A stretch of 64,000 nt of DNA, taken from positions 144,582-208,581 of the forward strand of contig BPJG01000001.1 of assembly GCA_026004495.1 (NCBI GenBank). Reading direction: 5' to 3'. This document shows, in pieces, positions 22,536 through 43,646 of the stretch. Below the pieces are notes generated by a model. The model was not told the origin of the DNA. It ran no database searches and worked only from the letters and a program-made list of their open reading frames with translations. The position numbers and the translations under genes are program-made. The stretch's first letter is position 1. Every line of letters begins with the position of its first letter. The DNA comes from Candidatus Parcubacteria bacterium (GTDB lineage: Bacteria; Patescibacteriota; Minisyncoccia; UBA6257; HR35).

Positions 22536-25037
<2,502 letters not shown>

Positions 25038-25053
25038 TGGAAATAATTTTCAA

Positions 25054-29596: not shown

Positions 29597-30161
29597 CTAC
29601 TCTGTTCTTACCACTTTTTTTAGCTTTATACATTGCTTTATCTGCTTTATCAATTAATTCCTTAAAATTTCTTTCTTTATTGTATTCTACAACTCCCAAG
29701 CTAGCGGTAATATTAAGATAACCTTTTTTAGTTTTAATTTTTATTCTTTCAATTATTTGTCTTAAATCTTCAGCAATTTTTTGAGCCGAATTCAAATCAC
29801 AACCAATTAAAGTAACAACAAACTCTTCACCACCTAAACGTCCAATAATATCGTAATCTCTTAATCTTCCCTTAATAACCTGAGCAACTTTCTCTAAAAC
29901 CCGATCTCCAATTTTATGACCATAGATATCATTTATTTTCTTAAAATTATCTATATCTAAAAATATCACCGCTAATGGTATCCTATATTTTATTCTTCTT
30001 TCCAATTCCCTTCTTTTATAGGCAACAGCCTGAAATATTTTTTGAGAATTTTCTAAAAAACCTCGTCGATTTAAAACTTTAGTCAATTCATCATAATAGG
30101 CCAAAAAATTTAATTTTTTAATTTCAGCTAAAAGTTTTTTTATATTATATTTTTTTTTCAT
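29586..30161 (-). CDS. GGDEF-domain diguanylate cyclase (stand-alone)
   Basis: RxGGEEF active-site motif (IGRLGGEEFVV), upstream FLDIDNFKKIND. Confidence 0.8.
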   Translation of the reverse strand: MKKKYNIKKLLAEIKKLNFLAYYDELTKVLNRRGFLENSQKIFQAVAYKRRELERRIKYRIPLAVIFLDIDNFKKINDIYGHKIGDRVLEKVAQVIKGRLRDYDIIGRLGGEEFVVTLIGCDLNSAQKIAEDLRQIIERIKIKTKKGYLNITASLGVVEYNKERNFKELIDKADKAMYKAKKSGKNRVVAL

Positions 30162-30237: not shown

Positions 30238-31677
30238 TTATTTAAATAAATCTTCAATATTCTTAATATTCTTTTCTAATATTTTTTCTATGTAATTTAA
30301 ATGTTTTTTAAGGTGTTCAATTTGTTCTTCTTCTTCCTTAACTAATTCTCTTTTCTTTTTAATTGATTCTAATATTTTTAATTGTTTTTCTAAATCGAAC
30401 CTTAACTGGTTAAAAGAATGATGCGAAAATTTTTCTATTTCAGAAATTTTATCCTCAATTTTTTTCTTTATTTTTTTATTTCTCAAGTATAAAATTATTA
30501 AAATTAAAATTAATACTAAAATCAAAATAGTTAAAATTGAAATGATTATGAGTAAATATATTAGATTAATTTTTATATTTTCTAATCTTTTTTCTGTAAG
30601 AATATCGCGAGAGCCAATTTCAAAATTTAAACTACTATAACCAATATTTGAAGCAAAATCGATAGCTTTTACGGTTAAATTATGCTTACCAGGTTTAATA
30701 TTAAAATCTTCTAGTGAAATAATTTTTTCTTTGGTTAGAGTTGCTAAGGTATTATCTAAATAAACTTCAAAATAATTAATACCTGATAAATTATCTTCAG
30801 CTAAAATTTCAAATTTAGGTAATTCATGAGCAAATTTTCTTAAAATTTCTTTTATTTCAACTGAAGGTGGGGTAGTATCAATCATAACTTTATAACTACT
30901 AATTTCACTTGAAGACTCGTTGTCTTCAAATTGTAACCTAAAGTAATAAATACCATCAGCAAGATTTTCTATCTTTCTATAATTTATAGGTGGCTCATAA
31001 ATAATAGTAGGTGGTTGATTAATACTTGTTGTTAAAATTAACTTCACCCTTTTAACATTATTAATTAATTCCCATTCTACTTCTAAATCTTTGATATTAT
31101 ACCATTTATCTTGATCTGGATGAGTTCTAGAAATAATTATAGGTTTAGGTAGATTAATCTTTTTAGAAATAGATAATTGAGTTTGATCATTTTCTAGTTT
31201 TCTTTTATATATTTTAATTTTTGCTTCTGTCGCATTTTTAAAAATATCTGTTCCTTCTCCATCAGCCGCTAAAATTTGAACATTATTAAAATTTATTTTA
31301 GTTACATCAGTCTCCTTTAATCCCCTAAATTCAATGTCGATAATTTTACCTTTTTTACCCTTAAATGCTTTATTTAAAACTACCCCCTCAAAAGTTATTT
31401 CACCATTATTATTATCAAAAACCGGTTTTACTGCCCAAAAATTAATTATTGAATCACTATCAGAAATCTTGATCACTCTTAAATATTTGTTATCAAATTT
31501 TATTCTAACACCAACAGCATTAATCTCTTGATCAGAATCAACATAAGCTGATAATTTAAAATTTTTATTAATTTCAAATTCACCCTCTAATGGTGAAAAA
31601 TATATAGTAGCTGAAAAAATTAAATTAGGCACTAAAAGAATAAAAAAAAAGATAAATAACTTAAAATAAATTTTCAT
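30238..31677 (-). CDS. membrane-anchored cohesin-like domain protein with C-terminal TM and cytoplasmic coiled coil
   Basis: Signal peptide. N-terminal ~140 aa has a cohesin-like pattern (IKFDNKYLRVIKISD...GEITFEGVVL...GKIIDIEFRGLK...INFNNVQILAADGEGTDI). Then a beta-rich region, a TM helix, and a K/E-rich tail. Confidence 0.5.
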   Translation of the reverse strand: MKIYFKLFIFFFILLVPNLIFSATIYFSPLEGEFEINKNFKLSAYVDSDQEINAVGVRIKFDNKYLRVIKISDSDSIINFWAVKPVFDNNNGEITFEGVVLNKAFKGKKGKIIDIEFRGLKETDVTKINFNNVQILAADGEGTDIFKNATEAKIKIYKRKLENDQTQLSISKKINLPKPIIISRTHPDQDKWYNIKDLEVEWELINNVKRVKLILTTSINQPPTIIYEPPINYRKIENLADGIYYFRLQFEDNESSSEISSYKVMIDTTPPSVEIKEILRKFAHELPKFEILAEDNLSGINYFEVYLDNTLATLTKEKIISLEDFNIKPGKHNLTVKAIDFASNIGYSSLNFEIGSRDILTEKRLENIKINLIYLLIIISILTILILVLILILIILYLRNKKIKKKIEDKISEIEKFSHHSFNQLRFDLEKQLKILESIKKKRELVKEEEEQIEHLKKHLNYIEKILEKNIKNIEDLFK

Positions 31678-33020: not shown

Positions 33021-33109
33021 CTAAAAAATTTTAACAATAAAATTGATATAATTATAATTAGTGTAATTATATTCATATTCAAATTATTAATCGTAAATAA
33101 ATAAACAAT

Positions 33110-34924
33110 ATGAAAATAAAAGAAATAACAAAAAAAGTAATAATTATAATTTTGTTTTTAGCTATTATTTCATCAAATTTTATATTTAAAAAAAACTTAC
33201 TGGCAAATTTAATTTATTTTTATCCCCAAAATTGTTTAGGTAGTTTTATTAATCCTGAAAAAGCCCAAGGAAAACCTGAAGTTGATAGTCCAGATTTAAT
33301 AAATGAATCAAATTCTGCTGTTTATTTAGGTGGTTTTAAAGAAATTTATTGTGGAAATTTTCAAGGACCAGAGGCTAAAGGAGACATTAAAAAAATAACA
33401 TTACATTTTAATTGGATTATCACTAAAGAAAAAAATGGGGATTCGATAATTAAACCAACCTCAACAGAATCAAATATTTTAGAAAAAATAATTCCTTCAA
33501 AAACAATAGAGTTTGAATTTAATACTTCTCCAACTCCAACACCAGAAACAACCTCAACAATTGAATCAACATCAAGCCCAGAAATAAATTTTTTATTCAA
33601 CAAAGATCAACTTCTGCGTAGTTCTGCATTATCTTCTGTTAGTTCTGCGTCAGTTCTGCGTAGTTCTGCGTTTGATCTGCGTGAGTCTGCTTTAATAAAA
33701 TTTGTCTTTGCTCAAGAAACAACAACATCGCTTGAAACAACACCAGCTACAGAATCAAACTCAGAATCAACCACTATTAATACCCAAACCGAAACAGCAA
33801 CCCAAACTATAAATGAAACTCAACAATCTTTACCAGAAAATCAATCAGCAGAGCTATCAACAACTTCTACTTCAACAAATAATCAAATAGAAAATATCAC
33901 TTCTTCTACGACTACTCAAACATTAACCACCGCTTCACCAGCTGAAAATCAAAATGAAACTAATACAACGACAACAATTTTAGAAACAACCACAACACCA
34001 ATTTTAATACCTCCTAAAACTTTATTTGAAATTCACTATACCTTAGATGGTCAAAATTGGAATTATTTAGGTAATATAAATGAAAATAATTGGCAAAATA
34101 TTTCTTTTGAAATTCCAGTAAATAATTGGCTTGATATATCAAAAATTCAAATTAAGATAAATTCTTTACCAGAAACTGATTATTATCTTTATTTAGAATC
34201 AATGTGGTTTGAGATTGAATATGAAGAAAAAAACGAAGAAGATGAAGTTTTTGATATTTTAGGGAATTATAAGACAAATATCATTGTTTCTAAAGAGAGT
34301 TTCGAGCTTGATGAAATTCCTTACTTTGAATTTAAGATTTCTAAAAACAATAATGAAAATGAAATTGACATTTCTGAAATTAAATCAATTAATATAAAAG
34401 TTTTTAATTCCAATAAGGAGCTAATTTTCCAAACCAATAAGCTGGATTTTGATTATGATTCCAAAAATTTTTCTTTTAAATTAGATAATTTTCTAAAATT
34501 ATATCCAAATAGTTATAGATTAAAAATTTATTTAAATAAATATTTAGCCGGAGAATATGATTTCAATTGGGGAGGAAATATTGTTAAAGAAGAAAAAATT
34601 GACTCAGATAAAGAATTAATATTTATTGATTTTAATAATAAAAATCAAATATGGAATTTAACAAAAAGTGATATAAATAGTTTTGAAAAGATTTGGGAAG
34701 GCAAAGAATTTCCAAATTATAAAATTATTGATAGCTATCTAATTTTAAATTTTTCAGAAACAATTTTAGGCTATGACTTATTAAGTAAAACATCTTTTAC
34801 TTATACCTTTGAAAAATCAACTTCAACAATAATTAATATCAACAATAAAAAATATTCAATTTCACCAAATTTTGATTTTTTAGAAATTAATGAATCTCCA
34901 GAAAATGAAAATCAAGTTTTCTAA
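33110..34924 (+). CDS. secreted S/T-rich surface protein (604 aa)
   Basis: Signal peptide, a long T/S/N-rich linker that is probably glycosylated, and a C-terminal globular region. Overlaps the start of the giant gene by 35 nt. Confidence 0.55.
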   Translation: MKIKEITKKVIIIILFLAIISSNFIFKKNLLANLIYFYPQNCLGSFINPEKAQGKPEVDSPDLINESNSAVYLGGFKEIYCGNFQGPEAKGDIKKITLHFNWIITKEKNGDSIIKPTSTESNILEKIIPSKTIEFEFNTSPTPTPETTSTIESTSSPEINFLFNKDQLLRSSALSSVSSASVLRSSAFDLRESALIKFVFAQETTTSLETTPATESNSESTTINTQTETATQTINETQQSLPENQSAELSTTSTSTNNQIENITSSTTTQTLTTASPAENQNETNTTTTILETTTTPILIPPKTLFEIHYTLDGQNWNYLGNINENNWQNISFEIPVNNWLDISKIQIKINSLPETDYYLYLESMWFEIEYEEKNEEDEVFDILGNYKTNIIVSKESFELDEIPYFEFKISKNNNENEIDISEIKSINIKVFNSNKELIFQTNKLDFDYDSKNFSFKLDNFLKLYPNSYRLKIYLNKYLAGEYDFNWGGNIVKEEKIDSDKELIFIDFNNKNQIWNLTKSDINSFEKIWEGKEFPNYKIIDSYLILNFSETILGYDLLSKTSFTYTFEKSTSTIININNKKYSISPNFDFLEINESPENENQVF

Positions 34925-37900
34925 AAAAGCCTTTGTAAAGGTAAGCAACTTAATTTTAACTCTAATTCTATTAATTTCGCTAAATTTTTCTTATTTTATT
35001 TTAAGTAGTTTTAAATTATCAAAACAAAAATTTAAAGATAAACTTGTTAAAGAAGCGCAGGCAGTTTCTTTTTTCCATCCCACTAATGGCATCTTAGTTA
35101 CTGGTTCAGAAACAGCTTTAAGTAATTCTAATGTTGGCTCATGGCGAGGTTTATTAGGTAATGACTCAAATTATTGGCAAGTAGCCAGAGTTAATCCTGG
35201 AGGTTTAAATCTTTTAATTTATTTTGATGGAGTTGAACTTTATGGAGCTAATAAAATGATTATTACAATTGAAGATTCAAATATTATTACTGGTGATGCT
35301 TATATTCATCAAATTTGTGATTGGGTTGATTCAACTGGAGTTGATAATCCTGCTGATACTGATTGTACTGGTGGTGGTTGGCGAACATTAAATCCAAGAA
35401 AAACAACCTATACTAATATTGCTGATACTATTAGATCTTATGAAATATATAATGGTTATTTTTCAACCAGAGCAGCCTCTCCAGGAACGGTAATTAATAC
35501 TCCTTTATCTAATTTTATTGAACCAACAAATAAAAGAGTCTTAATAAGAGTGTATTCAACTGTCAATTCAACAACTAATTTAAGAATTGATTGGGCGCAA
35601 ATTGAAGTCGCTATTGATCCCTTTTATCAAAATGCTGGTATAACCTTAACTTCAGCTGGAGCAACAACTAACTTTATCTCTGACCTAATTGGTGCTCCTT
35701 ATCCTGGACCCAATAGTTCTGATAATGTTAAATTAACAATTCCTATGCCAGCAGCTAATCAACCAATTGATTTCTATTTCTCTTTTAAAAATGTCAAAAC
35801 TTATACTGGAATGAATACTATTTTAGTTGTTCCTGAAATTTGTGTTTCTAATACAGCTCTAACTTTTGATGTTTATTTGTGGAATTTTACTACTAATTCT
35901 TGGACTAAAAGACCAGGAACAGCTATTACTGGAACTGCTTGTACTACTGATACTGAATATGGTTTTGCTTTTAATCAATATACTATATCTGGTTTTAATT
36001 TAGATGATTATATTTCTAATGGTGAAATTAGAGTTAGGTTTTTAACCAATAATCCAGCTACTGTTTATAATATCCAACTTGATAGAATTTATATCTTTTT
36101 AGGTTCAGTTAATACTAATTCCTCAGCCTGTGAAATATCTTGGGGAACAGGAACAGCTTCAGATTGTGTTAATACCAGAGATATGAACGAAGGTTTAACT
36201 GCTAATCCAACAACTCTTACTTGGCAAACAGGAGCAGTAATTGAATATCCTGCTGGCTATCATCCCTTAGATAACGATGATGATATTACTAATGGTGAAT
36301 ATGCTTTTTCTTCTAATTTAGATTTTCCAGTAACTTTATCTTCTAATATGTCAGTAACTGCTATTCATTATGCTGGCAAATATAGATCAAATGCAACTTC
36401 AATTACCGTTAAACCATCAATTAGAGTTTATGGAGGTTTACCTGGTATTTATAGGAAAGCAGCAGGTTCTGGTTGGCGTGATACTCCCGGATCTGGTACT
36501 AATGCAGCTACTACTTATTCTTATTTTGATACCTTTAGAGTTCCTGAACTTCAAGTTGATGCACCAGATCATATTGATACAGTTAATAATCGAATGAATA
36601 TGAGATTAAGAACTTCAGCTTCAACTAATACTGCTGGTGGTGTAACTAGAGATTGGGATTTTGCAATGATGAGTATTAGATGGGTGGAAGAACCAAATAG
36701 AGTAACAATTACTAAAAATTTCCACCCCACTAACGGTATTTTAGTTACTGGTTCAGAAACAGCTTTAAGTAATTCTAATGTTGGCTCATGGCGAGGTTTA
36801 TTAGGTAATGACTCAAATTATTGGCAAGTAGCCAGAGTTAATCCTGGAGGTTTAAATCTTTTAATTTATTTTGATGGAGTTGAACTTTATGGAGCTAATA
36901 AAATGATTATTACAATTGAAGATTCAAATATTATTACTGGTGATGCTTATATTCATCAAATTTGTGATTGGGTTGATTCAACTGGAGTTGATAATCCTGC
37001 TGATACTGATTGTACTGGTGGTGGTTGGCGAACATTAAATCCAAGAAAAACAACCTATACTAATATTGCTGATACTATTAGATCTTATGAAATATATAAT
37101 GGTTATTTTTCAACCAGAGCAGCCTCTCCAGGAACGGTAATTAATACTCCTTTATCTAATTTTATTGAACCAACAAATAAAAGAGTCTTAATAAGAGTGT
37201 ATTCAACTGTCAATTCAACAACTAATTTAAGAATTGATTGGGCGCAAATTGAAGTCGCTATTGATCCCTTTTATCAAAATGCTGGTATAACCTTAACTTC
37301 AGCTGGAGCAACAACTAACTTTATCTCTGACCTAATTGGTGCTCCTTATCCTGGACCCAATAGTTCTGATAATGTTAAATTAACAATTCCTATGCCAGCA
37401 GCTAATCAACCAATTGATTTCTATTTCTCTTTTAAAAATGTCAAAACTTATACTGGAATGAATACTATTTTAGTTGTTCCTGAAATTTGTGTTTCTAATA
37501 CAGCTCTAACTTTTGATGTTTATTTGTGGAATTTTACTACTAATTCTTGGACTAAAAGACCAGGAACAGCTATTACTGGAACTGCTTGTACTACTGATAC
37601 TGAATATGGTTTTGCTTTTAATCAATATACTATATCTGGTTTTAATTTAGATGATTATATTTCTAATGGTGAAATTAGAGTTAGGTTTTTAACCAATAAT
37701 CCAGCTACTGTTTATAATATCCAACTTGATAGAATTTATATCTTTTTAGGTTCAGTTAATACTAATTCCTCAGCCTGTGAAATATCTTGGGGAACAGGAA
37801 CAGCTTCAGATTGTGTTAATACCAGAGATATGAACGAAGGTTTAACTGCTAATCCAACAACTCTTACTTGGCAAACAGGAGCAGTAATTGAATATCCTGC

Positions 37901-38828
37901 TGGCTATCATCCCTTAGATAACGATGATGATATTACTAATGGTGAATATGCTTTTTCTTCTAATTTAGATTTTCCAGTAACTTTATCTTCTAATATGTCA
38001 GTAACTGCTATTCATTATGCTGGCAAATATAGATCAAATGCAACTTCAATTACCGTTAAACCATCAATTAGAGTTTATGGAGGTTTACCTGGTATTTATA
38101 GGAAAGCAGCAGGTTCTGGTTGGCGTGATACTCCCGGATCTGATACTAATGCAGCTACTACTTATTCTTATTTTGATACCTTTAGAGTTCCTGAACTTCA
38201 AGTTGATGCACCAGATCATATTGATACAGTTAATAATCGAATGAATATGAGATTAAGAACTTCAGCTTCAACTAATACTGCTGGTGGTGTAACTAGAGAT
38301 TGGGATTTTGCAATGATGAGTATTAGATGGGTGGAAAGACCATTTGCACCACCAACAATTACTTGCTCTTTTTCAGCAACTTCAACTTCTTTTTCAAGTT
38401 TATCTCCTTCAGCTGTTTCTACTTCTTCACCTGATATAACAATTACCGTTACCTCTTCTGCTGGTTTTATAATTTCTGTTAATAATGCTGGAGATGGAAC
38501 TAACCCAGGTCTTTATAAATCAACTGCGCCAACATATTTAATTCCTTCACCCGATTCTTCATTTTCTGCAACTGCAACTTTATTTGCTGGCACAGATGGG
38601 TATGGTATTCAAGCAACAACGACTAATTCAAATATAAATATTAATGTAAGGTATAATGTTAGTGGATATACTGTTGGAGGTTTGACAACAACAACCATTA
38701 CTTTGGCAAGCTCTTCAGCTTCTGTTTCTTCGGCTCAAATTACTATTAAACACAAAGCATCTATTTCAGCCTTAGCACCAATAGGAAATTATCAGGATAC
38801 AATAACATATAGTTGCACAAGCCCGTAG
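34890..38828 (+). CDS. giant surface protein (1312 aa) with internal 549-aa tandem duplication and C-terminal SCPU/CsuA-B-like beta-sandwich domain
   Basis: N-terminal TM/signal. Two near-identical 549-aa units. The C-terminal ~160 aa resemble the stand-alone protein at 39426..40085 and pilin-like SCPU domains (see findings). Confidence 0.7.
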   Translation: MNLQKMKIKFSKKAFVKVSNLILTLILLISLNFSYFILSSFKLSKQKFKDKLVKEAQAVSFFHPTNGILVTGSETALSNSNVGSWRGLLGNDSNYWQVARVNPGGLNLLIYFDGVELYGANKMIITIEDSNIITGDAYIHQICDWVDSTGVDNPADTDCTGGGWRTLNPRKTTYTNIADTIRSYEIYNGYFSTRAASPGTVINTPLSNFIEPTNKRVLIRVYSTVNSTTNLRIDWAQIEVAIDPFYQNAGITLTSAGATTNFISDLIGAPYPGPNSSDNVKLTIPMPAANQPIDFYFSFKNVKTYTGMNTILVVPEICVSNTALTFDVYLWNFTTNSWTKRPGTAITGTACTTDTEYGFAFNQYTISGFNLDDYISNGEIRVRFLTNNPATVYNIQLDRIYIFLGSVNTNSSACEISWGTGTASDCVNTRDMNEGLTANPTTLTWQTGAVIEYPAGYHPLDNDDDITNGEYAFSSNLDFPVTLSSNMSVTAIHYAGKYRSNATSITVKPSIRVYGGLPGIYRKAAGSGWRDTPGSGTNAATTYSYFDTFRVPELQVDAPDHIDTVNNRMNMRLRTSASTNTAGGVTRDWDFAMMSIRWVEEPNRVTITKNFHPTNGILVTGSETALSNSNVGSWRGLLGNDSNYWQVARVNPGGLNLLIYFDGVELYGANKMIITIEDSNIITGDAYIHQICDWVDSTGVDNPADTDCTGGGWRTLNPRKTTYTNIADTIRSYEIYNGYFSTRAASPGTVINTPLSNFIEPTNKRVLIRVYSTVNSTTNLRIDWAQIEVAIDPFYQNAGITLTSAGATTNFISDLIGAPYPGPNSSDNVKLTIPMPAANQPIDFYFSFKNVKTYTGMNTILVVPEICVSNTALTFDVYLWNFTTNSWTKRPGTAITGTACTTDTEYGFAFNQYTISGFNLDDYISNGEIRVRFLTNNPATVYNIQLDRIYIFLGSVNTNSSACEISWGTGTASDCVNTRDMNEGLTANPTTLTWQTGAVIEYPAGYHPLDNDDDITNGEYAFSSNLDFPVTLSSNMSVTAIHYAGKYRSNATSITVKPSIRVYGGLPGIYRKAAGSGWRDTPGSDTNAATTYSYFDTFRVPELQVDAPDHIDTVNNRMNMRLRTSASTNTAGGVTRDWDFAMMSIRWVERPFAPPTITCSFSATSTSFSSLSPSAVSTSSPDITITVTSSAGFIISVNNAGDGTNPGLYKSTAPTYLIPSPDSSFSATATLFAGTDGYGIQATTTNSNININVRYNVSGYTVGGLTTTTITLASSSASVSSAQITIKHKASISALAPIGNYQDTITYSCTSP
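35075..38368. repeat. direct tandem duplication, 2 x 1647 bp, near-identical, inside the giant gene
   Basis: The landmark GTTACTGGTTCAGAAACAGC occurs at 35097 and 36744, an offset of 1647. The translated copies differ at only a few residues, e.g. SGTNAAT vs SDTNAAT. Confidence 0.9.
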
Positions 38829-38880
38829 TTAGTAGCTAGTATCTAGTAGCTAGTAAGTAGTAGCTAAAATCTAGTAGTTA
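38826..38880. repeat. TAG/CTAG-rich repeat R1 (TAGTAGCTAGTATCTAGTAGCTAGTAAGTAGTAGCT)
   Basis: Lies directly after the stop of the giant gene. Related copies are at 39255..39333 (inverted) and 40083..40130 (direct). Confidence 0.7.
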
Positions 38881-38886
38881 AATAAA

Positions 38887-39135
38887 ATGAAAACAAAATC
38901 TTTTAAGGAATTAATAGTTTGGCAAAGAGCAAAAGAATTAACAATAGAAGCTTATAAATTAACATCAAAATTTCCAAAATCAGAACTTTTTGGCTTAACA
39001 AGTCAAATGAGAAGATCGGCAATTTCTATTTCTTCAAATATTGCTGAAAGTTATAATCGATTTCATTCAAAAGAGAAAAAACAATTTTTAGCTGTTGCTT
39101 TTAGCTCCGGAGCAGAATTAGAAAGTCAGATTTAA
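38887..39135 (+). pseudogene. four-helix-bundle protein of the 23S rRNA intervening-sequence / Avd-like family, truncated by in-frame TAA
   Basis: Family pattern WQRAKEL...FPK.E.FGLTSQMRRSAISI.SNIAE...R....E...FL..A.SS..ELE.Q stops at ELESQI-TAA. The same frame continues IAKSL..., which is where family members continue (LIIAK.LGY...). Confidence 0.6.
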
Positions 39136-39254
39136 ATTGCTAAATCATTAATTTCCAGATTTAGATTATTCAAAAGTAGAAACTCTTATTATGGATATTA
39201 TGAAAATGTTAAATAAAAATTATTAATAAAAAATAAAAAAAATCAAAAAACAAC

Positions 39255-39333
39255 CTACTATTAGATTCTATTTACTAATTTCTAAATTCTATCCTGTATC
39301 TACTAGATCCTACTTACTAGCTTCTAGATTCTG
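39255..39333. repeat. TAG-rich repeat R2, inverted relative to R1/R3 (..CTACTAGATCCTACTTACTAGCTTCTAGATTCTG)
   Basis: Its reverse complement contains GCTAGTAAGTAG and CTAGTAG, as in R1. Confidence 0.65.
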
Positions 39334-39425
39334 TTCAATATTGTGGGAAAAATTTTTTGATGAAATATGATATAATTAAAAAATGAGTTTTCCTGTAGTG
39401 AAACTATAGTTTTTGCTACGGGGGA

Positions 39426-40085
39426 TTGGTCGAAATTAATAAAAAAAATAAAATGAAAAAAGTAAATACATTTCAAAGCTTGATCATTTTGATAAGCATA
39501 TTTTTAGCTATTTATTTTATTTCTGAGTTGTTTATTATACCATCGTCTATTTTAAAGGCTCAAACTAATGTTACTGTTTCAGCAACTGTGACAACAAGTG
39601 TTACTTGTAATTTTTCAACAACAACTACTAATTTTGGTACTATCGATACAAGTGCCGTCTATACTTCTTTGCCTAATGTAACAGCAACTGTTTCTTGTAA
39701 TCCAGCTGCAGGATGTAAGGTAGAAATTAACGATCAAGGATCTGGATCTCAGCCAGGTTTATGGAATTCAACAGCTTCTCATTTAATTCCTTCACCAGAT
39801 TCTGCATTCTCAGCAACTGCAAATTTAGTGGCTGGAACAGAAGGTTATGGAATTCAAGCAGCAACAACTTCAGCTGGATCTGGCGCAACTCTTTCTTTAA
39901 ATTCGAGATATATCCAAACTGGAAATACCGTTGGAGGATTAACAACAACAACTATTCAATTAGCCTCTTCGACATCACCAATATCAAACAGAGAAATTGT
40001 TGTTACTCATAAAGCAGCTGTTTCAAGTTTAACTCCAGCAGGTAATTATCAAGATACAATAACTTATAGTTGTTCATCGAATTAG
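39426..40085 (+). CDS. secreted SCPU/CsuA-B-like beta-sandwich protein (pilin-like), paralog of the giant protein C-terminus
   Basis: Signal peptide. NVTVSATVTTSVTCNF...NFGTID (cf. SCPU TFQVSATVxASCxV...FGTYD) and C-terminal AGNYQDTITYSCSS (cf. AGSYSDTVTVTVTY). Aligns with giant-protein residues ~1150-1312 (GL..STA..LIPSPDS.FSATA.L.AGT.GYGIQA.TT...GGLTTTTI.LASS...KA..S.L.P.GNYQDTITYSC). Confidence 0.55.
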   Translation: MVEINKKNKMKKVNTFQSLIILISIFLAIYFISELFIIPSSILKAQTNVTVSATVTTSVTCNFSTTTTNFGTIDTSAVYTSLPNVTATVSCNPAAGCKVEINDQGSGSQPGLWNSTASHLIPSPDSAFSATANLVAGTEGYGIQAATTSAGSGATLSLNSRYIQTGNTVGGLTTTTIQLASSTSPISNREIVVTHKAAVSSLTPAGNYQDTITYSCSSN

Positions 40086-40130
40086 TAGCTAATAGTTAGA
40101 AGCTAGTATCTAGAAGCTAGTATCTAGTAA
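40083..40130. repeat. TAG-rich repeat R3 (TAGTAGCTAATAGTTAGAAGCTAGTATCTAGAAGCTAGTATCTAGTAA)
   Basis: Same orientation and motif family as R1. Lies immediately after the stop of the SCPU-like gene. Confidence 0.65.
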
Positions 40131-40160
40131 TTAAAAACAATTTTTATAAAATTTAAAACA

Positions 40161-41075
40161 ATGAAAAATTATAAAAATAATTCAATAATTTACTTTCTTT
40201 TAGTTTCTATTTTCTATTTACTAGCTACTAATTTATTGGCTACTAATTTTGTTTTTGCCTTAACTGTTGGGCCAGCGAAATTAGAATTTATAACCGATCC
40301 AGGCCAAACTTTAGAATTTAGTTTATTTGTGAGAAACGATAGCGATTACGATAATAAATATCAAATTATTGTTGAAGGATTTACTGAAGAAGGAGGCGAA
40401 AGAAAATATATTGAAAATCCACCAGAAGTAACTTGGGTTGAAACACCAAAAGATATTTTTCTCAAAGCCAAAGAAGATAAAAATGTTCCAATAAAAATTA
40501 ATGTTCCTAAAGATGCTCCACCAGGAGGTCATTTTTTAGTTTTATGGGTAAGCACAAAGCCTGAAGGAGGTCAAGTAGCAATTGTCTCAAGAGTTGGCTC
40601 TTTAGTTTTTATTAATGTTTCAGGAAATGCAATTTATAAAGCTTATATCAGTGAATTAAAAGCTCCAAAATTTGCTTGGAATTTTCCAGTAAAATTTTCT
40701 TATGTAATTAAAAATGAAGGTAACACTTATATCACACCAAAAGGAGATATTGAAATTAAAAATATTTTTGGCAGATTAATTGCTGATTTACCAATAAATC
40801 CAAGAGAGCTTCAAGTTTTACCTAATACTTCAAAAAATTTTGAGCAAGAATGGAAAGCAAATTTTGCTCTTGGTATTTATAAAGCTATTTTTAATTTAGA
40901 ATATGCTAATTCAAGAGATTCTTTAACTCATTGGCTTATTTTTATTGATCTCAAAGCCCTGATAATAATTTTACTTATTCTTATTTTTGCAATCTTCTTC
41001 TTACCAAGATTGATTAAAAAATATAATGAATGGATAATTAAAAAGTATACGCAAAATAAAAATATAAATGAATGA
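40161..41075 (+). CDS. secreted beta-sandwich (Ig/CARDB/DUF916-like) protein with C-terminal TM anchor
   Basis: Signal peptide, about 250 aa predicted all-beta (TVGPAKLEFITDPGQTLEFSLFVRNDS...), C-terminal hydrophobic helix plus a basic tail. The family assignment is tentative. Confidence 0.45.
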   Translation: MKNYKNNSIIYFLLVSIFYLLATNLLATNFVFALTVGPAKLEFITDPGQTLEFSLFVRNDSDYDNKYQIIVEGFTEEGGERKYIENPPEVTWVETPKDIFLKAKEDKNVPIKINVPKDAPPGGHFLVLWVSTKPEGGQVAIVSRVGSLVFINVSGNAIYKAYISELKAPKFAWNFPVKFSYVIKNEGNTYITPKGDIEIKNIFGRLIADLPINPRELQVLPNTSKNFEQEWKANFALGIYKAIFNLEYANSRDSLTHWLIFIDLKALIIILLILIFAIFFLPRLIKKYNEWIIKKYTQNKNINE

Positions 41076-42124
41076 ATTTAAGAATAATTTCAATAATTTT
41101 TTTAATATTTGTTTCTATATTTATATTATTTTATTCTTTTACTTATCTTAAATCTGCTTCGATAAATATTAAAGCTTTTGTGCCTGGTATTTGTGGAAAT
41201 AATTTTAAAGAACCAGGAGAAGAATGTGATGGCCCTGATTTAGGAGGTCAAAGTTGTGTTTCTTTAGGTTATTCAGGCGGAACCTTATCTTGTAATTCTA
41301 ATTGTACTTTTAATACTTCTCAATGTACCATTTCTCCGCCAAGTAGTGGAGGAGGTGGGGGAGGCAGTGGATCGTACATTCCCTCTTATGGAACAGTTAT
41401 TCTTTCAGGAAGGGCTCAACCGAATAGTGATGTTACTTTAATGTCTGATGGTCAAATTAAAGCTGTTATCAAGGTTGATGCTGATGGAAAATTTAGATTT
41501 ACTATTTCAAATTTAACTCCAGGAAATTACATATTTACCTTATATGCTGAAGATATTGAAGGAAGAAGAACAAGTTTGCATTCAATTCCAACAGTAGTTA
41601 CTGCAGGACTGACAATTGAAATAGGCAGTATTTTTCTTTCACCAACAATTGACATTGATAAAACTCAAGTTAGGCGAGGAGAGATCTTAAGAATTTTTGG
41701 CCAAACAGCTCCTGAATCTAATGTTTTAATTGTTGTTTCTTCCGAAAAAGAGTTATATTTTCAAACTCAAGCAGAAAAAGATGGAAGTTATTTATATGCT
41801 TTCAATACTATTGACTTAGATTATGGCCAACATTTAACAAAATCAAGATCAATTTTAGCTAATCAATTAGTTAGTCCTTTTTCAAGATCTTTAAACTTTC
41901 AAGTCTCGACAAGTTCAATAGCTAAAAAACCAACAAAATGTCCATTAAAAGGAGATTTAAATAATGATTGTCGAGTAAATTTAATTGATTTTTCAATTGC
42001 CGCTTATTGGTATAAAAGAAAATTAAGTCCAAGTTTTACTAAAATTGAAAAAGAAAATTTAAATGGAGATGGAAAGGTCGATTTAGTCGATTTTAGTATT
42101 ATGGCTTATTGGTGGACGGGGTAA
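41072..42124 (+). CDS. dockerin-domain protein with N-terminal anchor, Cys-rich module, Gly linker and Ig-like domains
   Basis: The C-terminus has two canonical dockerin Ca-binding repeats: GDLNNDCRVNLIDFSIAAYWYKRK and NLNGDGKVDLVDFSIMAYWW. The N-terminal region carries 8 Cys (CGNNFKEPGEECDG...SCVS...SCNSNCTF..SQC) followed by GGGGGGSG. Confidence 0.7.
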   Translation: MNLRIISIIFLIFVSIFILFYSFTYLKSASINIKAFVPGICGNNFKEPGEECDGPDLGGQSCVSLGYSGGTLSCNSNCTFNTSQCTISPPSSGGGGGGSGSYIPSYGTVILSGRAQPNSDVTLMSDGQIKAVIKVDADGKFRFTISNLTPGNYIFTLYAEDIEGRRTSLHSIPTVVTAGLTIEIGSIFLSPTIDIDKTQVRRGEILRIFGQTAPESNVLIVVSSEKELYFQTQAEKDGSYLYAFNTIDLDYGQHLTKSRSILANQLVSPFSRSLNFQVSTSSIAKKPTKCPLKGDLNNDCRVNLIDFSIAAYWYKRKLSPSFTKIEKENLNGDGKVDLVDFSIMAYWWTG

Positions 42125-42127
42125 TAG

Positions 42128-42224
42128 CCACACGAATGCCAACGAATCAAATAAGCACACGAATGGCAACGAATTATATAATATTTGTGTGCAATTCGTG
42201 TTAATACACGAATGGCGATGAATT
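42128..42224. repeat. repeat family 2, left copy: tandem CACACGAATGGCAACGAAT units plus an internal inverted copy
   Basis: CACACGAATGCCAACGAAT, CACACGAATGGCAACGAAT, and GTGTGCAATTCGTGTTAATACACGAATGGCGATGAAT. Confidence 0.7.
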
Positions 42225-42275
42225 AAAATATAGAATTAGTAACAATTTGTGTAATTATGTACGAATAATAAAAAA

Positions 42276-42641
42276 ATGAACGTAAATATTAATAAAAACC
42301 AGAGTAGAAATATTTTGTATAAAGAGCTTTCTTGCAAGCTACAAGATATCTTTTTTAAAATAAGAAATGAGTTGGGTAGTGGTCATAAAGAATCAATTTA
42401 TCAAAATGCCCTGGCTAAAGAATTAGAAAAGAATAAAATAAACTTTCAAAGAGAATATCCGGTGAAAATATATTCAAAAGAAGGTTATTTCTTAGGATTA
42501 TATAAACCTGATTTTGTAATAGATAATAAGATAATAATAGAAGTTAAAGCGAAAAGTTTTTTGTCAAAGCAAGAAAGGATAATTATTTATGATTATTTAA
42601 AAAATAGCGAGTTTGAAGTCGCTTATATTGTAAATTTTTAA
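42276..42641 (+). CDS. GxxExxY protein (PD-(D/E)XK nuclease-like small protein)
   Basis: The motif GHKESIY (G-x-x-E-x-x-Y) is followed by L(G/Y)KPDFVIDNKIIIEVKA, a D...E.K core. Size 121 aa. Confidence 0.65.
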   Translation: MNVNINKNQSRNILYKELSCKLQDIFFKIRNELGSGHKESIYQNALAKELEKNKINFQREYPVKIYSKEGYFLGLYKPDFVIDNKIIIEVKAKSFLSKQERIIIYDYLKNSEFEVAYIVNF

Positions 42642-42713
42642 TCTAAAAAATTATTTTTCAAAAGATATATTTTTACAAACAATAGAAAGCCATGGTTAAA
42701 AAATATAAAATAA

Positions 42714-42766
42714 AATTCGTGTGCCATTCGTGTAATATTATTATATATTCGTACCATTCGTGTAGT
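42714..42766. repeat. repeat family 2, right copy, inverted (ATTCGTGTGCCATTCGTGTA ... ATTCGTACCATTCGTGTAG)
   Basis: Reverse complement of the CACGAATGG(C/T)ACACGAAT units found upstream of the gene. Confidence 0.7.
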
Positions 42767-42773
42767 TATAAAA

Positions 42774-43646
42774 ATGTCTAGGATTTATATACAAAGTGAT
42801 AAAAAAATGAATACTGATAAAATTATTATACCTATCTATCTTGACACTGAGGGAGAATCAATTAATGCTTTTGAAGTTAAAATTAAAATCTCTGACAATT
42901 TAATTTTTAGAGATTATTTAGAGAAAGATTCAATTATTAGTTATTGGATTGAAAGACCCCATGTAGTAGAGCGGAGCTCACTACCTGGCAAACCCAATGT
43001 AGTAGAAAAAAGTTCACCACAAGGTTCTACTACTGAGAACTTGTCTCGTAGTGAACCACAAGGTTCTACTACCGAGATAAATTTTTCTGGAATTACTCCG
43101 GGAGGTTATATTGGTAAAAAAGCTTTATTAGTAAATTTAATTTTTGAAGCTAAACAAAGTGGTTCAGCTTTCATTGAAATCTTGCCTTCGTCCAATGTTT
43201 TGTTAAATGATAGCTTAGGAACAAAAGCAAAATTAATAACTGAGAAATATAGTTTTATTTTAAACCGAACTCAGGAGAAGAAAATAATAATTCAAGATAA
43301 TTACCCACCCGAGCCATTTAAGGTTTATCTTCAAAAAGATAAAGAAATTTTTAATAATAAATATTATCTTGTTTTTTATGCCCAAGACAAACAATCAGGA
43401 ATATCTTATTATGAAGTTAAAGAAGGTGATTATGATTTTGAAAAAGCTTCATCACCATATCTTTTAAAAGATCAATCTTTAAGAAGTTATGTCTATATTA
43501 AAGCAGTTGATCGAGCAGGAAATGAACGAATTGAGATTTTTAAACCTCGAAAATTATTTTTGTTAGAGGAAATTTTATCCTTGATTTTTTTTATTGTTAT
43601 AATATTCTTAATATTTCTAATTTTCAATAAAAAATTTAAGAAATAA
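42774..43646 (+). CDS. membrane-anchored cohesin-like domain protein (second copy) with in-frame repeat insertion
   Basis: The N-terminal beta domain resembles the 30238..31677 protein (IIIPIYLDTEGESINAFEVKIKISDNLIF...EINFSGITPGGYIGKKALLVNLIFEAK...AFIEIL). There is a C-terminal Ig-like region plus a TM anchor. An inserted segment RPHVVERSSLPGKPNVVEKSSPQGSTTENLSRSEPQGSTTE is encoded by short direct and inverted repeats. Confidence 0.5.
   Translation: MSRIYIQSDKKMNTDKIIIPIYLDTEGESINAFEVKIKISDNLIFRDYLEKDSIISYWIERPHVVERSSLPGKPNVVEKSSPQGSTTENLSRSEPQGSTTEINFSGITPGGYIGKKALLVNLIFEAKQSGSAFIEILPSSNVLLNDSLGTKAKLITEKYSFILNRTQEKKIIIQDNYPPEPFKVYLQKDKEIFNNKYYLVFYAQDKQSGISYYEVKEGDYDFEKASSPYLLKDQSLRSYVYIKAVDRAGNERIEIFKPRKLFLLEEILSLIFFIVIIFLIFLIFNKKFKK

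Follow-up and report, generated by a model that had tools for sequence, protein, structure and literature searches.

A locus predicted to encode an usher-free, Pam-type pilus with a putative dockerin-cohesin anchor in Candidatus Parcubacteria bacterium KatS3mg094

Comparison with described systems

Pam pili are usher-free pili with membrane-anchored chaperones that were described in a CPR bacterium, Candidatus Mycosynbacter amalyticus (Troman et al., bioRxiv 10.64898/2026.03.03.709456), and the NCBIfam models NF058581 and NF058579 represent them. Cryo-EM showed that the donated strand of these pili is the linker between the NTD and the CTD of the pilin, the NTD is argued to stabilize the linear filament, and ATP synthase genes are reported in pam neighborhoods (10.64898/2026.03.03.709456). 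The window, i.e., the whole 64,000-nt stretch of Candidatus Parcubacteria bacterium KatS3mg094 analyzed here (contig BPJG01000001.1), carries a locus that we read, with a probability of roughly 65%, as encoding a Pam-type pilus built by donor-strand exchange without an usher, in a Parcubacteria/Paceibacteria variant with a dockerin-cohesin anchor; this reading draws on sequence comparisons and structure models. Both systems have a monoderm CPR host and no usher, the system of the window being predicted from genes and models. In both, the C-terminal domain of the pilin is an incomplete Ig-like acceptor, the donated strand is conserved and of one sequence type (VxVTATV), with its donation being predicted in the window, and a PapD-like chaperone whose C terminus is a TM helix is encoded next to the pilins, PamC and PamD having been compared by description. 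ATP synthase genes also lie nearby in both cases, here ~4 to 10 kb from the locus. PamT, a tip element without a donor strand, resembles the pilin domain of the window adhesin, and PamR, a base protein with an N-terminal strand and two Ig/FnIII-like domains, resembles the 350-aa dockerin protein. However, the shaft pilin of the window lacks the N-terminal beta-sandwich of PamA and PamB and, like classical chaperone-usher pilins, carries its donor strand as a genuine extension of the N terminus. A large, exchangeable adhesin is joined to the tip element, one chaperone is present instead of two, and the base protein ends in a dockerin rather than in a TM helix, with two predicted cohesin-TM proteins added. 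The Parcubacteria/Paceibacteria lineage is not discussed in the Pam preprint (10.64898/2026.03.03.709456).

The WxL clusters of Lactobacillales and Bacillales consist of a small and a large WxL protein plus a WxLIP, which combines DUF916, DUF3324, and a TM helix (PMC10599100; PDB 9i1y and 9i25). They share with the window a small protein made of the domain only, a large protein carrying the same domain at its C terminus behind variable host-binding domains, and a partner with two Ig-like domains and a C-terminal TM helix, and strand insertion between the partner and the subunit is predicted in WxL as well. In contrast, the window subunit has four conserved Cys residues, a free donor strand, and no Pfam WxL match, and WxL proteins are described as peptidoglycan-bound platforms, not polymers (PMC10599100), and their clusters are not reported to contain dockerin or cohesin genes. 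Archaic and alternate chaperone-usher pili, such as Csu (CsuA/B-CsuC-CsuE), CupE, and CFA/I (CfaA-CfaB-CfaE), have an N-terminal donor strand like that of the window pilin, and chaperone-usher pili also share the PapD-like chaperone. Their tip adhesins CsuE, CfaE, FimH, and PapG have at least two domains and a pilin domain without a donor strand, as the window adhesin does. The window system differs from them in having neither an usher nor an outer membrane, in its membrane-anchored chaperone, and in an anchoring that does not proceed through an usher. The TLP-1a/b fibrils recovered from pond water by CryoSeek (PDB 9IKJ/9IKK; PMC11494351) have only 12% identity to the window pilin; TLP-1 is an 8-nm tubule with subunit n+4 acting as the donor, and its closest sequence is from a Flavobacteriales bacterium (PMC11494351). 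Unlike for the window locus, the producer and associated genes of TLP-1 are not known (PMC11494351). Cellulosomal pairs, such as the Ruminococcus flavefaciens scaffoldins (PDB 5aoz and 5m2o), share with the window a type-I-like dockerin with two Ca-loop/helix repeats and cohesin-like N-terminal domains on cell-anchored proteins. Here, however, carbohydrate-active enzymes are absent, the dockerin is carried by a pilus-type subunit, the predicted cohesins sit on TM-anchored proteins, the genome is very small, and the pairing is predicted.

The sequence-only reading of this DNA had taken the locus for an undescribed way of building a surface fiber, but the usher-free principle is already described in the Pam preprint of 2026 (10.64898/2026.03.03.709456) and in WxL clusters (PMC10599100). 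Its core idea is supported, while the novelty of the principle and the mode of display that it proposed are not. The features that look new are the single-domain pilin, the modular tip adhesin, and the inferred dockerin-cohesin anchor.

Gene content and conservation of the locus

The features discussed below are as follows.

30238..31677, minus strand: second predicted cohesin protein, 479 aa (from synteny and family Pfam matches)
33110..34924, plus strand: 604-aa protein, hydrophobic at its N terminus and S/T-rich in its center (KatS3mg094_174)
34890..38828, plus strand: 1312-aa predicted tip adhesin with signal/anchor, two near-identical modules of 549 aa, a linker rich in Pro, and a pilin domain at the extreme C terminus
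35072..36689, plus strand: adhesin module, copy 1 of a tandem duplication
36719..38336, plus strand: adhesin module, copy 2 of the tandem duplication
38355..38825, plus strand: C-terminal pilin (acceptor) domain of the adhesin, residues 1156-1311
38812..38897, no strand assigned: heptad/14-nt repeat tract, copy 1, directly 3' of the adhesin gene
38887..39135, plus strand: 82-aa ORF within a 23S-rRNA-IVP pseudogene (38887..39217)
39426..40085, plus strand: 219-aa single-domain pilin, the predicted shaft subunit, with signal sequence, donor strand, and acceptor domain
39570..39590, plus strand: predicted donor strand V49-T-V-S-A-T-V55 of the pilin (from conservation)
40079..40150, no strand assigned: heptad/14-nt repeat tract, copy 2, directly 3' of the pilin gene
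40161..41075, plus strand: 304-aa membrane-anchored chaperone-like protein (from fold model, fold search, and Pfam)
41072..42124, plus strand: 350-aa dockerin protein, the predicted base or terminator subunit (from Big_6, Dockerin_1, and synteny)
41162..41182, plus strand: donor-strand-like motif I31-N-I-K-A-F-V37 of the dockerin protein, at its predicted mature N terminus
41948..42121, plus strand: dockerin module, residues 293-350 (from Pfam Dockerin_1)
42276..42641, plus strand: 121-aa GxxExxY / PD-(D/E)XK protein (from PDDEXK_3 and TIGR04256)
42774..43646, plus strand: 290-aa cohesin-like protein, the predicted membrane anchor (from family profile and synteny)

The ORF list contains all eight co-oriented genes that had been noted on the plus strand at 33110-43646, including the one for the S/T-rich protein. 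The gene for the 479-aa cohesin protein is a further conserved member of the locus beyond these coordinates and is displaced to the opposite strand in the window genome. The locus is widely conserved and its core genes are intact. A synteny search, as had been proposed, revealed that the order chaperone, dockerin protein, 290-aa cohesin, and 479-aa cohesin is kept in ~60 of 81 Patescibacteria loci. The absence of an usher remarked on earlier also holds: no match to PF00577 was found among ten scanned ORFs, including every ORF of at least 450 aa outside the locus, and no usher was seen within the conserved cassette of the 81 loci.

The small pilin and its predicted donor strand

The 219-aa protein shares 55% identity over 162 aa (E value of 2e-33) with residues 1156-1311 of the 1312-aa protein, a similarity that is far beyond chance and that agrees with the match between the two noticed earlier. 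It has 351 homologs of ~205 aa, with a mean column identity of 60%. The mature protein is a single domain of ~170 aa, in which the acceptor is an incomplete Ig domain with four conserved Cys residues. In its AlphaFold2 (AF2) model (pLDDT of 89.9), the protein has a CsuA/B-like pilin fold; nearly all of the best 50 Foldseek matches are chaperone-usher pilins, and CsuA/B, TLP-1b, and CfaB are among the fold matches. No WxL chains are among the structural matches listed for the pilin, and none of 52 pilin family members matches the Pfam WxL domain (PF13731). The family profile detects PapF among PDB sequences at an E value of 0.011. The SCPU resemblance seen by the sequence-only reading is in line with the CsuA/B-like fold, but Pfam SCPU (PF05229) matches the window pilin at 18.2 bits, short of its gathering score of 22.4 (E value of 0.0034, first 65 of 138 positions only), and reaches an E value of ≤0.01 in 11 of 52 family members. 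The Pam model NF058581 (CPR_Pam_pilin_C) covers nearly its whole length on the window pilin (positions 3-146 of 148), with 22.1 bits and an E value of 1.3e-4, and scores 11.5 bits on the pilin domain of the adhesin, both below its cut-off of 55 bits; such subthreshold matches occur in 40 of the 52 members.

A strand, VTVSATV, follows the signal peptide of the pilin; V49, V51, and A53 do not vary at all, and V55 hardly does. In the monomer model, this segment has no defined structure and a reduced confidence, and in alignments it corresponds to the linker DDQVSVTATV between the NTD and the CTD of pilins above the Pam HMM cut-off, which together suggest that V49-V55 is the donor strand. By a pattern taken from the pilins themselves, on which all donor-motif statistics given here rest, the motif was detected in 24 of 25 small pilins and in not one of the 20 large proteins of the loci.

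The giant predicted tip adhesin

The gene for the 1312-aa protein contains a tandem duplication of 1647 nt, with 5 mismatches in 1618 nt, 4 of which fall within the first 22 nt. The duplication is absent from the earlier note. Full-length homologs of the adhesin module are nearly all 733 to 929 aa long, corresponding to one copy. The C-terminal pilin domain has 80% identity to that of an otherwise unrelated 785-aa adhesin in locus L001. Adhesins in relatives range from 440 to over 3500 aa, and the N-terminal regions of 17 of them fall into at least seven unrelated groups, whereas the pilin domain is conserved.

The sequence-only reading had placed the VSATV strand in both proteins and had treated their pilin domains as equivalent. 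Of the two, only the small protein has the strand; in the giant one, the pilin domain starts at TITC, and RPFAPP precedes it in place of VTVSATV. In a library of 1.84 billion representatives, the pilin domain is C-terminal in 150 of 150 representatives, and the donor motif is found in none of 69 proteins longer than 460 aa. Since they lack the donor strand, the large proteins should be tip adhesins, and the presence or absence of this strand appears, from sequence conservation, to be the key functional difference between the small and the giant protein.

The membrane-anchored chaperone-like protein

In the 304-aa protein, a signal peptide and two beta-sandwich domains are followed by a C-terminal TM helix and a cytoplasmic tail with the conserved sequence KKYNxWI, in line with the membrane-anchored all-beta protein described earlier. 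Its AF2 model (pLDDT of 92.8) shows the two beta-sandwiches and the TM helix. The best Foldseek match is WxLIP 9i1y (5e-11, with a TM score of about 0.5), and further matches include 9i25 (WxLIP bound to long WxL), CfaA, CsuC, FimC, and PapD. In the HMM comparison proposed earlier, DUF916 (PF06030, WxLIP_PGBD) is the top Pfam family of the protein but stops at 21.6 bits, below the cut-off of 27.3; among the members of the chaperone family, 25 of 59 match WxLIP_PGBD at an E value of ≤0.01, the best at 1.2e-6. The chaperone gene adjoins pilin genes in every locus with a detectable pilin. In loci L052, L068, and L069, the pilins pass the NF058581 cut-off (81, 81, and 58 bits, respectively) and are encoded directly upstream of chaperones of the window family (profile E values of 5e-95, 2e-90, and 9e-87, respectively). 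On the evidence of the model, the 304-aa protein is a two-domain WxLIP/PapD-like chaperone, and since the partner is of this kind, the earlier guess of donor-strand complementation was well founded.

The matches of the window proteins to SCPU, Pam pilin C, and WxLIP_PGBD are all below the curated cut-offs, which counts against the pilus reading. Such scores, and the fact that Ig-like folds are common, would also fit neighboring but unrelated secreted Ig-like proteins with a generic beta-sandwich and no strand exchange. This explanation is highly improbable, as the fold matches are specific to donor-strand-exchange subunits and chaperones rather than to Ig folds generally, the gene order is kept across dozens of genomes, and each class of protein consistently either has or lacks the donor strand.

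The closest relative of the 304-aa protein with a solved structure is WxLIP, which is said to partner WxL proteins stably; this counts against a transient chaperone. The WxLIP-like protein might instead hold the adhesin and/or the small subunit permanently, as in WxL clusters, forming a short membrane platform that does not polymerize. One of the WxLIP entries matched is bound to long WxL, WxLIP_PGBD is the top Pfam family, the gene triad has the published architecture of WxL clusters, for which a stable complex is proposed (PMC10599100), and the conserved cytoplasmic tail would suit a permanent membrane component. We nevertheless consider such a complex unlikely. A free, conserved donor strand and an acceptor domain, together the requirement for self-polymerization, are both found in the small subunit, its closest folds are the polymer subunits TLP-1b, CsuA/B, and CfaB, with no Pfam WxL match, cryo-EM of Pam pilins shows filaments formed by the homologous linker strand and CTD (10.64898/2026.03.03.709456), and a dockerin protein with a donor strand only fits a polymer terminator. 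The platform is the alternative closest to the display through a membrane-anchored partner that was envisaged in the sequence-only reading; the evidence favors polymerization, with that partner as the chaperone and the dockerin protein as the base subunit.

The dockerin protein and the cohesin-like proteins

The 350-aa protein consists of a signal peptide, a donor-like strand, a Cys-rich module, a Gly linker, two Ig-like domains, and a C-terminal dockerin. The dockerin recognized earlier is confirmed by Pfam Dockerin_1 (PF00404; 23.1 bits, with a cut-off of 22.9), and its two Ca-loop/helix repeats, as well as the duplicated module DLNxDxxVNLxDFSIxAYWY...YWTG-COOH, are conserved in the full-length homologs shown. 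The 290-aa protein has a cohesin-like domain, an OmpL47/Ig-like domain, and a C-terminal TM helix. Its cohesin-like nature, also proposed before, is upheld by the family profile, which among PDB sequences finds only R. flavefaciens cohesins at E values of 2e-5 to 7e-4 (best 5aoz, 2.2e-5; also 5m2o and 5m2s). In the 479-aa protein, a signal peptide is followed by a predicted cohesin, Ig-like domains of the Big_13 type, a TM helix, and a coiled coil in the cytoplasm. Pfam Cohesin (PF00963) matches 15 of 31 members of the 479-aa type, the best at 2e-10, and Big_13 matches 17; for the 290-aa type, Cohesin is the top family and matches 5 of 39 members. The window's own 290-aa and 479-aa proteins have no Pfam Cohesin match. 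The 290-aa cohesin is syntenic in 58 of 81 loci, and in 60 of the 81, the gene in third position after that of the chaperone encodes a homolog of the 479-aa protein. We infer the pairing of this dockerin with these cohesins from synteny only.

This co-occurrence leaves room for a real pilus that is anchored otherwise, e.g., by the chaperone or by a PamR-like protein encoded elsewhere, with the dockerin and cohesin genes forming a separate display module. The dockerin protein and the 290-aa-type cohesin gene are both missing from loci with two tandem chaperones, so the cassette is dispensable for a pilus of this superfamily; in four tandem-chaperone loci, a short ORF resembling the 479-aa cohesin lies ~9 kb upstream. 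The anchor proposed in the Pam preprint is the TM-anchored, RbmA-like PamR, with no dockerin mentioned (10.64898/2026.03.03.709456). In the alignment of the window clade, a signal peptide is missing from the 290-aa protein, which is a difficulty for a cohesin placed outside the cell and also fits a separate module. This alternative is possible but doubtful, because the dockerin protein itself bears marks of the pilus. The pilin-type donor motif ([VI]x[VI]xAx[VI] within the first 90 aa, at the mature N terminus) occurs in 53 of 66 dockerin-protein homologs (80%), compared with 8 of 976 other ORFs, and is followed by Pro-Gly in the window and by a Gly/Pro linker or poly-Gly in relatives. The dockerin protein gene comes directly after the chaperone gene in 68 of 81 loci, the two are fused into one ORF in locus L044, and the layout of the protein mirrors that of PamR, with the dockerin replacing the TM helix.

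Proposed assembly of the pilus

For the preferred reading, a Pam-type pilus with a dockerin-cohesin anchor, the following assembly is predicted from the sequences and models. All subunits would be exported via Sec, and the membrane-anchored chaperone would cap the groove that stands open in every pilin domain. Able to receive a strand but not to donate one, the 1312-aa protein would start the fiber and come to lie at its distal tip, where it would display its variable host-binding module in two copies. The 219-aa pilins would then be added, each placing its N-terminal strand in the groove of the subunit before it. With a donor strand but no acceptor groove, the 350-aa dockerin protein would terminate growth and form the base, and its dockerin would bind the cohesins of the 290-aa and 479-aa TM proteins, fastening the fiber to the cell. 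Such a clasp could serve a bacterium that has no outer membrane and in which no sortase signal was detected. Since the window pilin is single-domain and the NTD is said to stabilize the Pam filament, the stability of a polymer is here a prediction. The likely function of the pilus is attachment to a host cell.

Additional genes and repeats

The 604-aa protein has no match in Pfam or NCBIfam. Its gene is the first of the cluster and overlaps the start of the adhesin gene by 35 nt, and in 11 other loci a homolog is encoded immediately upstream of the adhesin. The best promoter-like sequence in this region spans 33031-33058, although such sites are not enriched compared with shuffled sequences. 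The 82-aa gene matches Pfam 23S_rRNA_IVP (E value of 4e-27, positions 1-76 of 106), and the element at 38887..39217 contains an in-frame stop and a frameshift in a tblastn comparison with the orthologue of locus L002; it is a decayed 23S-rRNA-IVP/four-helix-bundle pseudogene and probably not part of the machinery. The 121-aa GxxExxY protein matches PDDEXK_3 (E value of 9e-25) and TIGR04256, and its gene, found at the same position in few loci only, is probably an unrelated small gene lodged within the locus. The heptad/14-nt repeat (TAGTAGC TAGTATC ...) that follows the adhesin and pilin genes is found at the same positions in loci L001 and L002.

Composition of the surface locus

The eight plus-strand ORFs that the sequence-only reading placed at 33110 to 43646 are all present, exactly as it described them, in a window that is AT-rich (G+C content of about 19 to 33%). 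They are listed here with the cohesin-like gene found on the other strand.

30238-31677 (-), 479-aa cohesin-like protein (cohesin-479)
33110-34924 (+), 604-aa protein, KatS3mg094_174
34890-38828 (+), 1312-aa putative adhesin with a C-terminal pilin domain
38887-39217 (+), 23S-rRNA-IVP/four-helix-bundle pseudogene (82-aa ORF; in-frame stop at codon 83, then a frameshift)
39426-40085 (+), 219-aa small pilin
40161-41075 (+), 304-aa membrane-anchored chaperone-like protein, KatS3mg094_178 (100% identity)
41072-42124 (+), 350-aa dockerin protein
42276-42641 (+), 121-aa GxxExxY PD-(D/E)XK protein (Pfam/NCBIfam)
42774-43646 (+), cohesin-like protein of about 290 aa (cohesin-290)

The 604-aa protein and the 549-aa module of the adhesin gave nothing usable in Pfam or NCBIfam; the sole match, a 22-residue Kelch_4 fragment, was not regarded as a propeller. 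The 82-aa and 121-aa ORFs appear unrelated to the machinery.

Pilin domain and chaperone

The 219-aa protein shares a domain with residues 1156 to 1311 of the 1312-aa protein (55% identity; E value of 2e-33), as had been noticed from the sequence, and belongs to a family of proteins of about 205 aa (351 matches) whose alignment columns average 60% identity and in which four cysteines are conserved. Its AlphaFold model, built from the family alignment, has a pLDDT of 89.9, and the best 50 Foldseek matches in the PDB are nearly all chaperone-usher pilins (CfaB, CsuA/B, CsuE, Caf1, FimG/F/A, and PapE). The Pfam SCPU model scores 18.2 bits against the small pilin (cutoff, 22.4) and matches 11 of 52 family members, PapF was matched among PDB sequences at a subthreshold E value of 0.011, and the NCBIfam model NF058581 ("Pam pilus system pilin subunit") aligns over nearly its whole length with 22 bits (cutoff, 55) and matches 40 of the 52 members. 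The proposed SCPU/CsuA-B-like domain is thus right at the level of the fold, as the structure matches indicate, but Pfam membership is not supported because the sequence scores stay below the threshold. The shared domain is of the donor-strand-exchange pilin type. V49, V51, and A53 are invariant in the small-pilin family and V55 is nearly so, an alternation typical of donated strands, and the V49-V55 segment is unstructured in the monomer model. The idea that TLP-1 is a CPR product was set aside, since a Flavobacteriales bacterium carries the sequence closest to it.

The 304-aa membrane-anchored partner is chaperone-like. Its model (pLDDT of 92.8) has a pair of beta-sandwich domains between a signal peptide and a C-terminal helix, and its best structural matches are to WxLIP of Enterococcus faecium (E value of 5e-11), including an entry with WxLIP bound to a long WxL protein, followed by the chaperones of chaperone-usher systems, CfaA, CsuC, FimC, and PapD. 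Among 59 chaperone members, 25 have Pfam WxLIP_PGBD (DUF916) as their best family, mostly below the threshold, and the chaperone profile returned only noise from PDB sequences. The main rival explanation, a non-polymerizing WxL-like platform held by a WxLIP-like protein, fits these WxLIP matches; the CfaA, CsuC, FimC, and PapD matches of the same protein and the pilin matches of its neighbor fit a strand-exchange fiber, and the platform is considered rather unlikely. The cytoplasmic tail that follows the chaperone transmembrane helix (residues ~283 to 300) carries a strongly conserved KKYNxWI motif, with Y288 and N289 invariant (n = 59), a hint of a cytoplasmic interaction that periplasmic PapD-type chaperones lack. 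In one related locus (L044, 10001-11914), the chaperone and the dockerin protein are encoded together in one 637-aa ORF, which reflects either a fused gene or a sequencing error; a genuine fusion would support a physical link between the two.

Relation to Pam pili

The Pam pili of Candidatus Mycosynbacter amalyticus (CPR), a cultured Saccharimonadia relative, were solved as filaments and named in a 2026 preprint that left host recognition open (bioRxiv 10.64898/2026.03.03.709456). The system has no usher; PamC and PamD are PapD/FimC-like chaperones with a C-terminal transmembrane helix, PamT, a tip pilin of one domain, has no donor strand, and PamR, which is RbmA-like with an extra N-terminal strand and a transmembrane helix, is the proposed pilus terminator and anchor (bioRxiv 10.64898/2026.03.03.709456). 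Because this published gene logic is also that of the window locus, the assembly mode is not new, and its earlier description as undescribed is outdated. The sequence-only interpretation was largely right in spirit and its observation is confirmed, but the system is a variant of a recently described kind rather than a new kind, and its distinctive parts are a single-domain pilin, a predicted modular tip adhesin, and a dockerin protein with a donor-type strand accompanied by cohesins.

Scanning GTDB species genomes with the chaperone alignment identified 80 loci, nearly all labeled Patescibacteria with a few bins otherwise named, including Wolfe-, Jorgensen-, Lipton-, Nomura-, Kaiser-, Taylor-, Portnoy-, and Magasanikbacteria and bins labeled Saccharibacteria. 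In the more distant loci, a gene for a two-domain pilin of 350 to 400 aa lies directly upstream of the chaperone gene, and three such pilins pass the NF058581 cutoff (L052 and L068, 81 bits each; L069, 58 bits). The window chaperone is thus a member of the family working with bona fide Pam pilins. The inter-domain linker of the three pilins, DDQVSVTATV, aligns with NVTVSATV, which follows the signal sequence in the small pilin; the latter effectively corresponds to a Pam pilin that lacks the N-terminal domain. Its donor strand has turned into a genuine N-terminal extension of the kind known from classical chaperone-usher pilins. In NCBIfam, no Pam model was matched by the chaperone, dockerin, or cohesin proteins of the Pam-positive loci, and neither PamA nor PamB came up when PDB sequences were searched with an NF058581-positive Pam pilin.

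A second type of locus has two tandem chaperone homologs of about 340 and 430 to 580 aa (L056, L065, L071, L074, L075, L077 to L079, and L081). These loci lack a dockerin protein and a 290-aa-type cohesin gene, and in four of them, a short ORF resembling cohesin-479 lies about 9 kb upstream. They possibly represent the PamC/PamD arrangement of the cultured Mycosynbacter.

Polarity and probable tip adhesins

The donor motif, defined as [VI]x[VI]xAx[VI], is present in 24 of the 25 small pilins of the loci and in none of their 20 large proteins with a C-terminal pilin domain, in which a Pro-rich or unrelated linker precedes the conserved cysteine. Among the best 150 matches in a library of 1.84 billion representatives, the pilin domain lies at the extreme C terminus in all 150, in proteins of up to 3,576 aa, and the 69 proteins longer than 460 aa all lack the motif. 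A subunit that accepts a strand and donates none can occupy only the distal position, which makes the large proteins, as judged from their motifs, probable tip adhesins comparable to FimH, PapG, and CsuE. The N-terminal parts are freely exchanged: the 785-aa protein at the orthologous position in the sister genome (KatS3mg095) has nothing but the pilin domain in common (80% identity), and 17 adhesins fall into at least seven unrelated groups. In a Magasanikbacteria genome (L026, 6557-8779), the adhesin module of the window (E value of 3e-102) sits on a different, Pam-type C-terminal pilin domain, so that shuffling of adhesin heads and pilin adaptors takes place between subfamilies.

The giant gene contains a 1,647-nt tandem duplication that is absent from the sequence-only reading, with copies at 35072-36689 and 36719-38336 that differ by 5 mismatches in 1,618 nt, 4 of them in the first 22 nt and 1 in the 1,596-nt core. 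Full-length homologs of the module are almost all 733 to 929 aa, fitting one copy, and the two-headed adhesin appears to be special to the window genome. The junction is diverged, in frame, and still similar to the start of a pilin domain (..TIT-K versus ..TIT-C). The near identity of the copies could stem from misassembly, but an artifact is unlikely because the junction is in frame and diverged and the 5 mismatches distinguish the copies; recent duplication or gene conversion is suggested. A diversity-generating retroelement was also considered and rejected: the four-helix-bundle gene has a weak Avd-like match but is a pseudogene, and the adhesin C terminus is the conserved part.

Dockerin and cohesin-like proteins

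The dockerin protein (68 of 81 loci), a cohesin-like protein of about 290 aa (58 loci), and a cohesin-like protein of about 480 to 600 aa (60 loci) are encoded in this order downstream of the chaperone; the third gene of the window has been displaced to the opposite strand, at 30238-31677. The dockerin passes the Pfam cutoff, and both of its repeats are conserved in the full-length homologs compared. Fifteen of 31 members of the 479-aa family match Pfam Cohesin (best E value of 2e-10), and the only PDB matches of the 290-aa family profile are R. flavefaciens cohesins. The cohesin-dockerin genes could be a separate module merely traveling with the pilus genes, and the Pam preprint mentions neither dockerin nor cohesin (bioRxiv 10.64898/2026.03.03.709456); the recurrent gene order and the motif described below point to their being part of the pilus cassette.

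The mature N terminus of the dockerin protein bears a donor-type motif (INIKAFV in the window; VNITATV, VSVSATV, and others elsewhere), which occurs in 53 of 66 homologs versus 8 of 976 other ORFs, at least 3 of those 8 being further pilins. Because Pro-Gly, a Gly-rich linker, or poly-Gly comes next, this strand is an isolated extension rather than part of a domain. The protein consists of the donor strand, two Ig-like domains, and the dockerin, with no acceptor domain, a layout that is that of PamR with the dockerin replacing the transmembrane helix. The top matches of a literature search included no paper on dockerin or cohesin in CPR pili. In the window and L001 to L007, cohesin-290 has no signal peptide and starts at the mature N terminus of its orthologs in other lineages, which have one; in L005 to L007, it begins 1 to 3 nt after the dockerin-gene stop codon.

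Proposed assembly and implications

From the genes, domains, motifs, and synteny observed, we infer the following steps. All parts would be exported by Sec, and the membrane-anchored chaperone would cap the groove of each pilin domain. The adhesin would begin the fiber, small pilins would join by strand exchange, and the dockerin protein would give the last strand and end growth, its dockerin binding the cohesins of two membrane-anchored proteins. A strand-exchange fiber with a tip adhesin and a membrane-anchored chaperone is the favored reading (probability of about 0.75), and anchoring of the pilus by dockerin-cohesin contacts falls a little short of an even chance. More tentative is the complete proposal for Parcubacteria/Paceibacteria, in which the pilus base is closed by a dedicated strand-donating subunit clasped through dockerin and cohesin to two membrane-anchored proteins and an exchangeable host-binding adhesin at the distal end sets which host can be attached.

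CPR/Patescibacteria are thought to live attached to other microbes, and to our knowledge, the mechanism by which most of them recognize and hold a host is not known. The locus indicates the usher-free strand-exchange principle, in a simpler form, in the large Parcubacteria/Paceibacteria radiation, and the variable N-terminal part of the modular tip adhesin is a direct candidate for the determinant of host specificity. If the distal position holds, an adhesin drawn from a large, freely exchanged repertoire would determine the host open to the episymbiont. Anchoring via dockerin and cohesin is a second testable addition; if true, it would be a hitherto undescribed structural use of this pair in pilus anchoring and a substitute for the usher of diderms and the sortase of Gram-positive bacteria. 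Through this locus, chaperone-usher pili in diderms, WxL clusters in Firmicutes, and Pam pili in CPR bacteria are linked in one structural theme, which bears on the evolution of strand-exchange fibers, and the conserved cassette offers a simple genomic marker for metagenome surveys of adhesin repertoires.

Some pilin and chaperone homologs also occur in bins named Aenigmatarchaeota or Thermoplasmata archaeon (matches P0083, P0091, P0129, and P0134; locus L004). Because the archaeal bin of L004 and the Patescibacteria bin of L005 do not differ in their pilin and chaperone scores and share an adhesin linker, these homologs look like CPR contigs misbinned with archaea, possibly as a result of physical association of the organisms.

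Mobile genes, repeats, and neighboring genes

Intact 23S-rRNA-IVP/four-helix-bundle genes occupy varying spots within the loci of L001, L002, L020, and L024, and GxxExxY genes are likewise placed in the window (42276-42641), L001, L010, L015, and L028. Since intact copies occupy varying sites inside the same locus, both are suggested to be small mobile or selfish genes that favor the pilus locus.

Heptad/14-nt repeats (TAGTAGC TAGTATC ...) lie directly 3' of the adhesin and pilin genes at 38812-38897 and 40079-40150, and their position is kept in the two closest genomes (L001, 9933-9955; L002, 5262-5290, 9120-9141, and 9912-9919), with plentiful stop codons in every frame. A promoter and terminator scan of the region did no better than with shuffled sequence. 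The repeats might act in regulation, stand in for a terminator, or form a tract prone to slippage.

F-type ATP synthase alpha and beta genes are located at 22768-26565, about 4 to 10 kb from the locus, a neighborhood that echoes the report that pam operons lie near ATP synthase genes across CPR genomes (bioRxiv 10.64898/2026.03.03.709456). In addition, a protein with a GGDEF diguanylate cyclase domain (E value of 9e-44; 29586-30161) adjoins the displaced cohesin-479 gene and may have a regulatory connection with the surface locus.
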